From: Tricharina praecox
Taxonomy: Eukaryota
Assembly: GCF_024521635.1 (NCBI RefSeq)
Contig: NW_026250431.1
Coordinates: 248,001 to 312,000 of the forward strand
Length of the DNA stretch: 64,000 nt
Reading direction: 5' to 3'
In this document: one piece after another, positions 19,562-35,237 of the stretch
How the letters are laid out: each line of letters opens with the position of its first letter
How positions within the stretch are numbered: the stretch's first letter is position 1
Made by a program: the position numbers and the translations under genes
Notes under the pieces: model-generated
Told to the model about the DNA's origin: nothing
The model's input: the letters and a program-made list of their open reading frames with translations, nothing else
The model's database searches: none

Positions 19562-20069
19562 ACAACGGTTTTCTGTGCCGTGATGTTTGGTCTTTTTTGT
19601 CAGGATGGTGGGTTTATTTTCTTTGCTGCCGCTGGTCATTTCTGTCTTTCCTACCTTTCCTGAGTTCCATCCAGCATCCGTCCGAGGGGAAGTGTCAAAT
19701 GTTGGACGGCCGGTGATGATGTCCGGAGGAGAGATCGTAGACGGCCGCACCGGAGATGAAAGCGTGACGGCAGATACGTTGGATCTTTCGTCTACCGTGG
19801 GGAGTTGTAGACAGGTCGAAGACTATCAGCGCGATCGAGTCCTGATTGCCGTGCCTTATGTACACCACCTGAGTCACTGGCGATTCATAACATACCGGTA
19901 GCGGATGCAACAGCTTCTAAACCTTCGCAGACAATAGCTTTGGGCCTAATCACATGTCGGCTGTGTACATAGGCCAGGCGAGGTACTATCTGACTACTAA
20001 TTACTAACTACGCCTTAGAGTCAAGCTATTAGTACTCTAGATACGGTTCATCAAGCGAATTATAGCGGT

Positions 20070-20527
20070 GCACAATCGCTCACTCGCTCGGGATGGATCA
20101 ATTGTCACTCGCTTTTGTGGCGAGATTTCTCGTCGGGAGTCGGGACAGGCCAGGGCGGCGGACTCGAGAGAATAGGAACTCGATGTGGAATAAGGACTCG
20201 AGGCGGAATTGGGACTCGAGGGGGAGAAAAGACTCGAGGCGGAGTAGGGACTCGAGGGAGCGGACGTTGTCTTTTCCCAGTGTTATTTCTTTGGTGCGCT
20301 GTTTCTCTACCGATGGGACAGGCCAGGGTAGAAGGTAGGGGAAGCCTCATCGGGCCGCTCGATCAAAGTCGGGTTGGACAATGGCGTGGAAGCGGAGTAG
20401 GTTAGCACAGGCTTATAGCGACGACAAATCACCTGGCGTGAGCCTGGCTGGGTAGCGGGCGAGGAAACATAGTGTGCCTACTGCCAAGCTCTAGATAGGC
20501 CGCATGCAGTTGATGATCAACCAGAAA
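20070..20527 (+). mobile_element. Truncated non-LTR retroelement, subfamily B; 5' boundary uncertain and may include an 18-bp tandem array
   Basis: 20320-20400 and 20485-20527 are homologous to the reverse complement of 28460-28621; ends TCTAGATAGGCCGCATGCA; TSD not clear. Confidence 0.6.
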
Positions 20528-21146: not shown

Positions 21147-23232
21147 ATGTCTCATCAAAATCGAACGGTAAGCGATCTTAATCCTGGCCTCAAGCCCCAA
21201 AATAAAAACAAAAACTCAGCTAATCGCAATATGAAAATAGAATCAGAACCGCAACCTTCACCAGACTCCAGAGATGATTGGCGCTGGAAATATGACCACC
21301 GGGCAATTGGGTGGACTTCCAAGAAATACACCTGGCGTCACTTTCCCGAGAGCCCTCGCTGGTGCCATTGGGTCTCCGGTTGTCAACCAGAACTATTCCG
21401 TTGCGCAAATTTTCTCCTTCAATTACATGGCTAGCACTCCCATTCAGGCTCGCCCTGGCATCGGAAGTTCCTCTGCTGCCGAGTTTCACGGAGGATACTA
21501 TGACTATCTCGAAGTATCCTCGCGCAATGGGACCAACCACGGCTCAAGGCATTCCTCTACCATCGAATCTTGGGCCACCATCCAGAGTCGGGCCATCAGC
21601 GAGACTCGTCGCATGGGCCAGCGTGCTGATATCGGCTTTCGCGAACTACAGGAAGCTGTAGCCAATTTTCAAGATCACGCTGACGCCCGCGCTTACTTTA
21701 TCTCTCAAGCTTGCATCGTTGCTAGATCTCTCCTTGCCCAGCCGAGCGAACTCACTGCCGATTATGAAGGCGCTTACGCAGAGGCTTGCGATAATGCGAG
21801 AGCTTTCCTTGCCGCGCACGACCCAGCTGCGGTTGGAACTGACGGTGTGCCGAACGACTACTCTACTACGTTTAACAGCCTGGCTGTCCTCGAGCGACCT
21901 CTCGGCATATCTTCTAACGATAATGTCAGACTTTACGCTAAGGTTACCGTGAACGAAGCTGGTGCGGATCTCGGAGGTGCCGCTGTGGGTACCGGTGGTC
22001 TTTACTCGAACTTGCTGTTGGAGAGGATGGATGGTGAGGAGGCGGGATTTACTATGGACTTCCCCCACAGGGATGATCAGAATGAGCAGGAAAAACGCAT
22101 CAGCCCTCCCCCCAGTGACGATGGCGAAGTTGAGCCCGGCAGATCAGGATCTCGCAGTCCTTCTGGACCCGACGGTTCCGGATACCCCGATTCTTCTCAG
22201 CCCGATAGTTCCGGATCCCATGGTCCTTCTCAACCTGATGGTTCCGGACCCCATGGTCCTTCCCAGCCTGATGGTTCCGGATCCCAATATCCTTCTCAGT
22301 ACGACAGTTACGAATCCCCCGAATCCCCCAAACACGGTGAGGATCCTTGGATCAGTCGGTCAACTGTTAAATTCGGTCCTGATGGTGGATTTAAGCGTGG
22401 TGCTGGACCATATCGCTACGGCGGACTCTCGAATTGCCGGGTCCTTGAGATTGTAATGAAGAATCCTGAGCTATTCCCACCCACTCCCGCGGGCCACGAG
22501 GAAGAGCAACGCTGCGAGTGGCAGGGCTGTGAGAAGTCATTCATGGGCCTGCAGAAGCTCTGGGAGCATGTTGAATTCGGCCATGTTGGACGCAAGGGTC
22601 TGCGCACCGGAAAAGGATTGGAATTGAATTGCAAATGGGGCACTTGCGAGGTTCGCTGCAAGAGACGGTGCTACATCCTCAGCCACTTGAGGGTTCACAT
22701 TCCCCACAAGCAGTGGCCCTGTCCCGTTTGCCTCAAGGATCCGGCCGCGGCGAACTACGGCCCGAAGGTTTTCAAGCGCAACTTCGATCTGGGAAAGCAC
22801 CTACAGAATTGCCATCCTGTGAATTGGGAGAAGATCACGGCTTACGCCCTTGGAGAAGGCGAAGTCGGAGCAGGCGAAGTCGGAGGTAAGCATGTTGATG
22901 TGGATGAGATTTACGGCGCCGACGAAGCTGCCAACAGCGGAGTACTTAAAAACTTCAGCGCCGACGAAGCCGCCAATAGCGAGGTGTCTTACTACAGCGC
23001 CGAAGAAGCCCGGCCTGCCAATAGCGAAGTGCACTACACTGCCGAAGAAGCCGCGAATATCGAAGTGCCTTTCTACAGAGCCGGCGAAGCTGTCAACAGC
23101 TCGGTGCTTCCTGCAACCGCCCCCACAGCCGGCAGAAAAGACGATTCTTACCACAAGATCGTTTTCGAAGTTCTCAACAGCTACCGGTTCTACAGCACCA
23201 ACAAAGTTGAGAGCTTGAACTACTTGGTTTAA
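21147..23232 (+). CDS. Divergent PacC/Rim101-type three-finger C2H2 zinc-finger protein (~670 aa)
   Basis: Exon 1 21147-21167, intron 21168-21240 (GTAAGC...GCTAAT...TAG), exon 2 in frame with the 652-aa ORF; CEWQGC..HVEFGHVGRK, CKWGTC..SHLRVHIP, CPVC..FKRNFDLGKH. Confidence 0.85.
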
Positions 23233-23272
23233 ATAAGTGACTAAGTAGTTCATGTTCTCAACTTTGTTGGTG
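23196..23272. repeat. 33-bp inverted repeat (hairpin) spanning the stop codon of the zinc-finger gene
   Basis: Arms 23196-23228 and 23240-23272, 30/33 complementary, 11-nt loop containing TAA. Confidence 0.9.
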
Positions 23273-24414: not shown

Positions 24415-25025
24415 CAGTGTTCTACATAGACCAGTCCCGACCAAATTTGGGTATCGTCTGGTCGGTCTGAATATATCCCGACTAAAAAAAACTCTCGTCT
24501 GGTCGATCGGGATATATCCCGACTAAAAAAAAATCAGGTCTGGTCGGTCGGGATATATCCCGACCGATCAGACATAGGTCGGGATAAGTCGGGCTAAGAA
24601 AGTTTACACGTTGGAATTTGTAATCTTTACAGTCATTTATTCTACACCAGATCCTTGTCGTATAGCGCGGCCAACATCTCCCCAATTTCCTTCACATCCG
24701 CCTGAGTCGCCGCAATCATCCTATCCTTCTGCCAGATTTTGAGACATTACACAGCCTTTAGTGCATCATCACGTGCTAATGCTTTCTCTGCCAGCATTTC
24801 TGCGACAATTATAGTAACATTCCGCACGCACAACTATGACAGAAAATTTCCAGCTGATACGCTTATCTGTTATCCCGACGTTGGCCGACCTGGGCCGACC
24901 GAGCCTGGCAAGGTCTGGTCGGTCGGGATATATACCGTCTAAAAAAACTCTGGTCTGGTCGGGTCGCGATATATCCCGACCGACTCGTCCGGTCGGCCGA
25001 CCTGTCTGGTCTATGTAGAACATTG
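24415..25025. mobile_element. hAT-type MITE, family B (611 bp)
   Basis: 20-bp TIR CAGTGTTCTACATAGACCAG (1 mismatch); 8-bp TSD AACCTTAG at 24407-24414 and 25026-25033; subterminal CCGAC/GTCGG repeats. Confidence 0.93.
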
Positions 25026-28459: not shown

Positions 28460-28621
28460 TTTTTTTTGTTTAATCAATAATTGCATGCGACTTATCTAGA
28501 TCATGGCAATATCGCCCCGTTCACCCCCCCCCCCCCCCCCCCCGTTTCCACGCCACTGTCCAACCCAGCTTTCGCTGAGCGGCCCGATGTGGATTTCCCT
28601 GCCCTCTGCCCTAGCCTTTCC
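28460..28621 (-). mobile_element. Truncated non-LTR retroelement, subfamily B, poly(A) tail
   Basis: Perfect 16-bp TSD GCGAGAGTCAGAGGTT at 28444-28459 and 28622-28637; minus strand ends TCTAGATAAGTCGCATGCA...AAAAAAAA. Confidence 0.88.
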
Positions 28622-32302: not shown

Positions 32303-35237
32303 ATGTCGAATTCCCGTCGCGCGAACCTGTGCAGCTGGCATCTCTGCGAGCAGCCCGCCGTCTGTGATTACTACGTGCTTCTCTACAGCCGCTGCTACTG
32401 TCTCGCGCACTGTGGCCTCCACCGCCAATCCCTCGGATTATCCATGCCTTGCCCCAGGTGCTATCCGCCTACACCCCAGCAACTAATTGTCGAACTAGAC
32501 GGCAGCCGCGAACCCCAGTCCGTGATCGCGCTGCCCCGCACCCGCGACAAGTTCACCCCGCTTCGAGGTTCAAGCCAGCAATGCGATCAAAAGTCCGCCC
32601 CGCCCGCCACGACATCAGCAGATACAACCTTGCTCCGAGGATCAATCGGAAGAGGAAGAGGAAGAAGAGGAGGAAGAGGAAGAGGAAGATGACGAGGAAG
32701 AAGAATGTTATTCGGAGGTTGAGTCGCCACTCCTTATCGCACCATTGCGGCTACAGCCCAACAAGCCCGTTAGCAATGATCAACTACGCGGGCGACCTTC
32801 GCGGGAGCAGAGTCAGCCCGACCCGGCAGGCTCCACCAGGCCCAAATCCGCGGCCACGGTCGCCGCACCGAGGCACCAGTCCGCCGTAGCCGAGCCGTCA
32901 CCACGCAGTCGAACGCAGAAAGAGCAGCAATCCGACCGAGAATCCACCCGCGAACACGAAGCTCAACCGAACTTGGAGCCGGCCTTGAGTCGTCGACGCC
33001 GCAACAAATCACGCTTCCAGAACGGTGATCAATCTGCGCAACACCATCGTCCGAGCGCACCACCGTCCAATCCTAACGCACGCGACGAGCAGCATACTCC
33101 CCACGTCGAGGAAACCCACAACAGATCACGCCACCGTCGTCCGCGACGCCGACGCCATCCCGCGGCGCAGCCTGACCCCAAACGTGAAGAGGACTCCGAA
33201 TCGGAATCGGAACCTATGCCGGAACCTACACCGACACCTACCGCCGTGCGCATTGCACCGCCATCTCGGGCAGAGGCTCGTGCAAAGATTCGCAACAATA
33301 CCCAGGCACATCGCCGCCCCCGTGAACGACAGCCCAAAGCTGACGGCCCCTCCATCATTGCCACGCCGGAACCGGAACCGGCACCGCAGCCGCGTGGTCC
33401 TGGTAATAAATTGCGTCGCCGACGCCGCAGAGCTGAAGCATCAAAGCTTCAACCCAAGAATGAGCCCTTAGAAGATGACGCATTGGATTCAGACGGTGAA
33501 TCCAAGACCGACCGCACTGACACCGCGAGCCCGCATCCGGTCCAGTCACCTCCTACGACTCGCCAGCAATTGGCGCCGCGCCGTCGCCCACGCGAGCGAC
33601 AGTCCAAACCTGAAGGCCACCTCAACGACGCCGCACCTGGACCCGACGTACGGACCCGGTCAGGAAGAAGCCGATCACGCCGCCGCCGCCACGTCGCTCC
33701 TACGCCGCAGCCCGCACCGGAGCCACAACCTGACTCCGAATCAGACTCGGACGATGAATTCCTGAATGGCCGTTCCCCCGCGATGCATCCGCCGCCATCG
33801 CCTGCTCGCTCCGCCGGTGGCTACCGGTCGCCGAAGCAGGAAGTAGACCCTAGGACCGAGGTCTACAATTCATTCAATTTCACACTGCACGATCCTCCTC
33901 ACCCCGCCGGGCCCCTGTTGGCGGTCTACGATCACCGTAAAGCGTCCCGCCAGAGACAGGAGAACCATATACCTGGGCCGCGTGGGCCTCAGTCTCTCGC
34001 ACAGGCCAGGGATCCGTCCAAAATGCGTGAAAATGCAATCGTCGCCATCAAGAAACGTGACCCTCCGGTGCCGCAGCAACGAAAGGAGCGATGGGAGCTC
34101 CCTCAAAAGGCTCACGGAACACCCTTGTCCGTTCAGCATCGCGAAACCCTAGTACCTAACGTTGAGCCCGCGCCGAAGGCTGCACCCAAGCCCATCGCGG
34201 GACCAACCGTTTACGAATCCCCGCATCCACACCCACAGATGCAGATGGGAAATACACAGGCCATGCGTCCCTTCGCATCCCCAAACAATGTGCCGCAGCC
34301 GGTGCCGGTGTCTTACGGACACCTCCCTTGGGAGGCATCGGTGCCGCAGCCCCAGAAAATTACAGCATACTATGCTTCCGTCATGTACAGCCCTGATTCC
34401 AGAACCGTCGCTGCACATCAAGGACCGGTAAGCTATGGTCCGCCTGCTCGGCAACATGCTGTTCAGCAGCCCCAGTTGATGGCAATTCAAACCGGTCCGC
34501 GTGTTCAATCCCAGTCGAACAGAATTCCACTTGGCCAGCATGCTCAGCCCCCTTGGGGAATCCACCAAGCACGGGTACATCCGGCCCATTACGTGCCCGA
34601 TTCGGACTGCCACTCCATCTCCACACCTGCCCGTTCTACCACCTCCAATTATTCTCCGCCTGGCCCTGCAGTATCCTCCGTCACGTCTCCGCCTGGCCCT
34701 GCGGTATCCTCCGTCACGTCCCAGCCATCAGAAGCTCCGGCGCCCAGGCCGTCGAAAACACAGGCAACCCAGGCCCCCAAATCCTATCTAGCAACATTGC
34801 ATAATCTATCTGAATCACCCCCGCCCAATCCCCCCGCCGGTCCGCCGGCCAAACCACAAGCTCTCGAACATCTTGTCCCCAACCGCCTCACCAACCACCC
34901 CACCTCCCCGCAACCGCAAGCCACCCCCACTTCCAACAAACCCTTCGTCAGCCTCTTCGGCGGACCCGGCCTCGACGACCCGGCCAATGCCGCACCCGCC
35001 GCCGCGCCCGAACCCGGCGACGATCCCTCGCGCGAACCTCTCAGAAGCGTGTACTTCTCGGATACCGCGCTGCAATGTGGGTGGCAGCAGTTCTTTGCGG
35101 TCTATCGCGGTAGACGGCCGGGGGTGTACGGGACGCCCGACGAGTTGGCGGCTCAGATTAGGGGATTGCCGAATCCGGTTTTTCGCCGGTTCGAGTGCTT
35201 GGGCGACGCCCAGATGTATCTGCTCGGAAGGAAATAG
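32303..35237 (+). CDS. Long low-complexity protein with C-terminal RNase H1 hybrid-binding (Cauli_VI) domain; upstream Cys/His-rich segment lies in another frame
   Basis: 830-aa ORF ending FFAVYRGRRPGVYGTPDELAAQIRGLPNPVFRRFECLGDAQMYL; true 5' end uncertain (frameshift or unresolved splice). Confidence 0.65.

Follow-up and report, generated by a model that had tools for sequence, protein, structure and literature searches.

The window analysed here, a stretch of 64,000 nucleotides from Tricharina praecox, carries a gene for a protein with three PacC-like zinc fingers whose DNA-contact residues are altered; we refer to it as the recoded gene (Table 1). Its predicted intron has a branch-like site at ~21220 and an alternative in-frame acceptor 6 nt further on. 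The public annotation seemingly represents the gene by an 84-aa fragment (P0002). Contigs from three other runs of one study overlap parts of it, and a single coding indel, of 9 nt, is listed among those runs (run X2). Coding repeats with periods of 33, 15 and 39/42 bp are present, and a RIP signature is absent (0.62 and 1.30, by thresholds taken from the available sections of PMC3778014). As the sequence-only reading of this DNA had described, the fingers begin about 430 residues from the N-terminus (the first Cys is residue 432, nt 22513, and the last His ends at 22815), and the acidic C-terminal tail, with 23 Asp/Glu against 10 Lys/Arg, lacks a YPxL motif. No YPxL/I motif was found anywhere in the 670-aa protein. 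Through the inverted repeat at 23196-23272, the last 11 codons are able to pair with the 3' UTR. This repeat represents either a local inverted duplication or an RNA structure, and a genome search returned no other copies of it.

Table 1. Features of the recoded gene and its flanks (positions in the window; coordinates of the N-terminal and pre-finger blocks are derived from residue numbers)
Feature	Position	Strand	Details
Six GCCARG (PacC-type) sites	19973..20488	.	0.66-1.17 kb upstream of the ATG; 6 in 1.5 kb
145-bp dispersed repeat	20252..20398	.	750 bp upstream; 41 genome matches, itself included, about 73-87% identity
Recoded PacC-like gene	21147..23232	+	two exons, 670-aa spliced product
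Exon 1	21147..21167	+	predicted; 7 codons, the first being the ATG at 21147; donor at 21168
Intron, 73 nt, phase 0, GT..AG	21168..21240	+	predicted from splice signals alone
Exon 2	21241..23232	+	open frame; 663 open codons up to TAA
Predicted three-helix bundle, no known family	21571..21819	+	exon 2 residues 111-193; single-sequence model, pLDDT about 70 in bundle
Second weakly conserved N-terminal block	21847..22023	+	local match to homologue P0157, shuffle P 0.0005 (ranges chosen after viewing the alignment; whole N-terminus P 0.025)
Four 33-bp coding repeats	22168..22299	+	Pro/Ser/Gly/Asp-rich spacer
Gly/Arg-rich pre-finger block, 46 residues	22369..22506	+	absent from PacC; P0157 score 102 vs shuffle maximum 42
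Finger 1	22513..22584	+	Cys-x-Trp type
Finger 2	22630..22698	+	helix -1 Arg, +2 Cys, +3 Tyr, +6 Ser (PacC: Lys, Asp, His, Ser)
Finger 3, 10-residue insert	22720..22815	+	helix -1 Arg, +2 Phe, +3 Asp, +6 Lys (PacC: Arg, Gln, Asp, Lys)
Acidic tail, 138 aa	22816..23229	+	partly 39/42-bp repeats; without YPxL/I; not conserved (P0157 tail: 34 aa)
33-bp inverted repeat across the stop codon	23196..23272	.	91% paired, 11-nt loop, z -9.25
611-bp non-coding MITE-like element	24415..25025	.	1.2 kb downstream; 20-bp terminal inverted repeats, internal 41-bp repeats

The hallmarks on which the assignment to PacC/Rim101 had been based, namely the tandem Cys-x-Trp type of fingers 1 and 2, the linker of PacC type that follows finger 1 and the sequences of both helices, were confirmed, as was the insertion after the second Cys of finger 3, which amounts to 10 extra residues. 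The linker between fingers 1 and 2 carries a further 3 extra residues that had escaped the first reading. Relative to the fungus's own PacC, all 14 zinc ligands and Trp residues are kept, whereas the other 76 columns yield 23 identities (Fisher p 7e-7). A profile built from 108 canonical PacC finger domains scored the recoded fingers at 78 bits (E 4e-25) and a Zap1-like row at 62 bits. Because all of these structural residues are kept and the profile match is so strong, chance resemblance to PacC fingers is ruled out. BLAST placed the recoded fingers nearer to the fungus's own PacC (67 bits) than to other tandem CWCH2 classes, represented by a Zap1-like library protein (46 bits) and by two T. 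praecox genes that we class as Fungl-like (29 bits) and ZafA-like (22 bits); the proposed derivation from PacC is thus borne out. Pfam gave finger matches on the protein, all sub-threshold, and the matches among PDB sequences were GLI1 and ZIC3.

The recoded helices were compared with the best 150 matches among 1.84 billion library representatives, of which one is a fragment of the recoded gene itself and five lack the tandem Cys-x-Trp pair. The top matches are PacC/Rim101 proteins, and 142 of the 144 tandem Cys-x-Trp rows among these best 150 have Lys-Arg-Asp-His at finger 2. Asp+2 and His+3 of this finger are invariant in the PacC-type rows (142/142), and the Arg-1, Cys+2 and Tyr+3 of the recoded protein are each absent from them (0/142 among the best library matches). 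In finger 3 of the same best matches, Phe+2 occurs in none of 136 rows, and Gln+2 is 93% conserved. The earlier description of the recognition helices as rewritten therefore holds for finger 2, where the canonical Lys-1, Asp+2 and His+3 are gone and Ser+6 is kept, and overstates the case for finger 3, which retains Arg-1, Asp+3 and Lys+6, three of its four canonical contact residues, with Gln+2 to Phe as the sole contact change. Espeso et al. in 1997 are said to have identified Q155 and K159 as the +2 and +6 residues of finger 3, contacting bases 4 and 1 of GCCARG. From such PacC contact assignments combined with a generic C2H2 code, we predict that the target of the recoded protein should keep the GCC half of GCCARG and differ at bases 4-5. 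In the available text of PMC10301932, fingers 2 and 3 of PacC touch DNA and finger 1 packs against finger 2; Q155K and K159M of A. nidulans PacC are listed as reduced-function substitutions in the accessible part of PMC4832277.

A search with the recoded fingers alone against longer proteins returned one match among eight candidates, P0157, a protein of 510 residues from a metagenome assembly of another organism (E 6.5e-38 to the recoded fingers); P0158 equals it apart from the first residue. The two proteins are 45% identical over 209 residues and barely alignable further upstream. They agree in 62 of 98 finger columns (63%). Helix residues agree at 12 of 14 positions, against 36 of the 70 other columns that are non-structural (p 0.02), and none of the eight contact positions (-1, +2, +3 and +6) differs. 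P0157 has the same 3-residue-longer linker, a 7-residue insert in finger 3 and C-terminally placed fingers, and no YPxL/I motif was found in it. Its best match in the T. praecox genome is the recoded gene (E 2e-58; pacC E 5.5e-6). Among 158 proteins compared, the pre-finger block matches solely the recoded gene itself and P0157/P0158, and no match below E 0.57 was obtained for it among PDB sequences. The recoded protein and P0157 stand at about equal distance from PacC, with 37 and 34 of 87 columns in common with it. Identical contacts combined with this equal distance would be expected from change followed by constraint, a pattern read from two sequences, one of them the sole independent homologue and available as protein only. 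Helices evolve slowly in ordinary zinc fingers as well, and for derived residues common to both proteins the enrichment in helices (6/7 against 21/43 elsewhere) is not significant (p 0.11). Judged from its sequence, the recoded gene is intact and under constraint. It had been called a lineage-specific PacC derivative; the derivation stands, while P0157 extends the range beyond the T. praecox genome to another organism.

We put at roughly 0.6 the probability that the recoded gene encodes a functional PacC-derived C2H2 transcription factor, a member of a small undescribed subfamily that is processing-free and has a shifted binding site. It probably acts as a regulator, with a predicted new target site. 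Loss of Pal processing is what we infer from the missing YPxL/I motifs and C-terminal region, PalA requiring two YPXL/I motifs according to the available text of PMC10301932.

It is unlikely that the protein instead retains GCCARG-like binding with a relaxed middle and acts on the PacC regulon independently of pH, whether competing with PacC or assisting it, in the manner of the truncated copies in Fusarium. The kept Arg-1, Asp+3 and Lys+6 of finger 3 and Ser+6 of finger 2, together with the conservative Lys to Arg exchange at -1, would suit such a role, and truncated PacC forms are described as pH-independent activators in the accessible sections of PMC6994591. The residues that were replaced, however, are precisely those that PacC-type proteins hold invariant (Asp+2 and His+3, 142/142) or nearly so (Gln+2, 93%), the residues in their place are fixed in two organisms, and the Fusarium copies have intact fingers. 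A switch of the fingers to binding protein or RNA instead of DNA, through a surface that the helix-face Cys, Tyr and Phe would form, we consider improbable. Polar contact residues have indeed become hydrophobic or aromatic, the Gly/Arg-rich pre-finger block and the helix of finger 1 are conserved too, and tandem Cys-x-Trp fingers have been proposed to serve protein recognition (available text of PMC2837044), but the basic -1 and +6 residues and the basic pre-helix residues that contact the DNA backbone are kept in both the recoded protein and P0157.

The T. praecox genome contains a separate canonical pacC on another contig (C2), so the recoded gene is not the only pacC-like gene present. Three introns interrupt this canonical gene (G000:C2:763.6-766.0 kb), whose helices are canonical and whose YPxL/I motifs fall at residues 452 and 614. 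A Geopyxis carbonaria record matches its finger region at 94% identity, and the region clusters with a Rhizina undulata record, which makes the host Pezizales-like. The search for further paralogues advised in the sequence-only reading yielded three more intron-less PacC-like copies, two of them apparently broken. The copy at C27:517.8 kb (L002) is open over 514 codons, with a finger 2 helix altered in a different way and a near-canonical finger 3. Those at C24:459.3 kb and C24:65.5 kb (L025, L026) are 87% alike in DNA; the first shows a frame shift after finger 3 relative to its sister and the second a stop at a zinc-ligand Cys of finger 3, and the pair apparently represents recent PacC copies in decay. 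Two other candidates, C10:173.6 kb and C27:128.8 kb, were rejected as PacC copies, scoring 43 and 39 bits with the PacC profile against 42 for the Fungl-like gene. Both are divergent genes with three fingers, the tandem Cys-x-Trp pair among them, and match PacC best, at borderline scores.

All four copies, including the recoded gene with its uninterrupted exon 2, lack both finger-region introns of canonical pacC. This fits RNA-mediated copying of pacC, and is not proof of retroposition since intron-less genomic pacC occurs elsewhere (L117, L138). The same two intron positions recur in other fungi, at 7 and 12 of 80 fetched loci; these loci are the best 80 of 394 and favour uninterrupted matches, many of them transcript-like, so the counts are not frequencies. 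L117 (contig JAABUO010002891.1), an intron-less gene resembling pacC of the filamentous-ascomycete type, encodes canonical helices and a C-terminus that is short; it may be a further retrocopy. The metagenome scan with canonical patterns returned canonical PacC only, with the canonical finger 2 helix in 79 of 80 by pattern (best 80 of 394). A metagenome contig scan with the recoded gene's own peptides gave 56 stretches, none of which was confirmed.

In three finger trees, built from 49, 27 and 25 rows chosen from 151 extracted domains, the recoded gene sat unplaced on a saturated branch. Its 92/92 join with the C27:517.8 kb copy links two saturated branches and is not trusted. Of 42 variable columns, the recoded protein and the fungus's own PacC have just 2 in common, and the highest identity of the recoded fingers, 50%, is to a yeast-type row (P0003). 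Such distances, like the unplaced position in the trees, would accord with an old sister subfamily, or one that arrived horizontally, retained in just a few lineages, rather than with a recent spin-off of the fungus's own pacC. We give this origin little credence, as the three other intron-less copies point to repeated copying of pacC in this genome, an AU test does not reject a clade joining the recoded gene to Pezizales PacC (p 0.40), and the protein and metagenome searches revealed no third member. That the gene is an untranscribed duplicate in decay, its helices altered by neutral drift, a possibility raised in the sequence-only reading, is very improbable: the two C24 sister copies do appear broken and the surroundings are orphan- and repeat-rich, but the recoded gene keeps 663 open codons and 14/14 structural residues at 41% identity, and P0157 has all eight contact residues in common with it despite differing at 37% of finger columns.

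Within the unrecognised helical region noted ahead of the fingers lies the predicted three-helix bundle, which has no Pfam match. A fold model of the whole recoded protein was unusable (pLDDT 34). The bundle is weakly alignable with P0157 (50-residue local match, shuffle P 0.0035), and no N-terminal homologues were found in the same genome (few candidates scored), in the protein collection (proteins of 364-1161 aa), or in the ESM Atlas and Pfam. MIT domains were among the top fold matches of the bundle (calpain-7, Z 8.4, rmsd 1.9, 73 aligned residues; MITD1, Z 8.4), ranking below two designed helical proteins, and a Z of 8.4 is ordinary for helical bundles. The best Foldseek hit had an E of 0.27. 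The Pfam MIT model (PF04212) had no match on the bundle segment, and its nine places in a genome scan include none at the recoded gene. The Pal pathway runs on ESCRT-III. In a complex prediction, the bundle with the fungus's own Vps24-like tail scored 0.24, below the mark of 0.34, a value given no weight either way. The idea that the bundle is MIT-like and takes over from the lost PalA motifs by binding ESCRT-III we consider very doubtful.

Housekeeping genes bearing Pfam domains fill the window from 1 to 16.4 kb, ending about 5 kb upstream of the recoded gene, and another, Apn2-like, lies at 52-54 kb. Between 16.4 and 52 kb, one of six ORFs tested has a Pfam match. The locus is an orphan-rich island and at most a putative accessory region, as which the first reading had it: the stretch is orphan- and repeat-rich, but its contig also carries the housekeeping genes that lie 5 kb upstream. 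According to the available text of PMC3778014, orphan genes occur commonly among Pezizales. A 903-codon low-complexity orphan ORF at 32526-35237 of the window ends in an RNase H1 N-terminal (hybrid-binding) domain (E 3.6e-8), and no RNase H catalytic domain was found in it. The 611-bp element has 110 matches in the genome. The 145-bp repeat has an inverted copy at 28542-28621, and a GCCARG site occurs in the copy at 20252-20398 and in one of four other copies checked.

The upstream GCCARG cluster, noticed post hoc, exceeds the 1.4 sites found in shuffles (P 0.002) and equals the top of 42 window tiles, two of which reach six. Five of its six sites read GCCAGG, and one lies inside the dispersed repeat. 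Canonical pacC has four GCCARG sites within 2 kb upstream, the C27:517.8 kb copy five within 1.5 kb and the C24 copies one each. The cluster gives a weak hint of possible PacC control of the recoded gene.

According to our preferred reading, in which a PacC-derived factor has acquired a shifted site, a copy of the pacC finger exon would have been made, probably through RNA given that both finger-region introns are missing, and the copied fingers would have come to sit behind an unrelated N-terminal region. The helices would have changed early and then been held fixed. With the C-terminal inhibitory region and YPxL/I motifs absent, no PalA/PalB cleavage would gate the protein, and control would thus lie in its own transcription, perhaps exerted by PacC at the upstream GCCARG cluster. 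Finger 3 would still read the GCC half, whereas Gln to Phe at its +2 position and His to Tyr and Asp to Cys in finger 2 would alter the middle of the hexamer. The resulting site may resemble GCCNNG, with new preferences, instead of GCCARG, and could be lengthened by the conserved basic pre-finger block. The recoded protein most plausibly acts like processed PacC with another address. A more ambitious form of this reading would make the gene the founding member of a PacC-born fungal subfamily and a second tier of the pH response, induced by PacC through the GCCARG cluster, independent of Pal and directing a different regulon through the new site; this we regard as doubtful.

Gene duplication followed by a change of specificity is a familiar route, and extra PacC copies are already known; what is new here is the recoded finger 2, the pre-finger block and their conservation. 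No description of a recoded PacC paralogue was found in open-licence papers and preprints. The start of the finger 2 helix is unchanged in 142 of the 144 best library matches, which span yeasts, moulds and early-diverging fungi, and a natural paralogue with a different contact set, fixed in two organisms, lends itself readily to testing the PacC recognition code. It would also be a clear example of how a master regulator can give rise to a new factor free of its upstream signalling.

Like A. nidulans PacC and yeast Rim101, the recoded protein has three C2H2 fingers, the first two a tandem Cys-x-Trp pair, the start of a PacC-type linker and the same residues at -1, +3 and +6 of finger 3. It departs from them in positions -1, +2 and +3 of finger 2 and +2 of finger 3, in the inserts of 3 and 10 residues, in the placement of its fingers from residue 432 onwards, in the missing YPxL/I motifs, C-terminal inhibitory region and finger-region introns, and in the new pre-finger block. 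The other tandem CWCH2 classes treated in the available text of PMC2837044 (Zap1/ZafA, Fungl and Zic/Gli/Glis) likewise combine a Cys-x-Trp pair with a following classical finger, but all score below PacC, and T. praecox has ZafA-like and Fungl-like genes of its own. The PacC-like protein P0094 of Thamnocephalis sphaerospora resembles the recoded protein in having its fingers at residue 435 of 528, no YPxL/I and an altered finger 3 helix; it differs in keeping Lys-Arg-Asp-His at finger 2 and lacking the pre-finger block, and is probably an independent case. A second library protein, P0104, is like P0094 in being PacC-like, with C-terminal fingers, no YPxL/I, an altered finger 3 and a canonical finger 2 start.

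A precedent lies in clinical Fusarium oxysporum, whose pacC_a and pacC_b, along with pacC_c, are, in the accessible sections of PMC6994591 and PMC9934661, C-terminally truncated copies near transposons, with intact fingers, nuclear localization and an induction that depends on core PacC. As described there, those copies, like the recoded gene, are extra to a canonical pacC, have lost the C-terminus and have mobile elements nearby. They are short, with an intact DNA-binding domain, whereas the recoded gene has altered helices and a long unrelated N-terminus; they are also accessory, a status that is at most putative for the recoded gene. Extra PacC copies thus reach beyond clinical Fusarium strains to a soil fungus, T. 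praecox, with at least four. Because of its recoded finger 2, its new pre-finger block and the conservation of both, the recoded gene is neither a PacC orthologue nor a copy of the Fusarium type.
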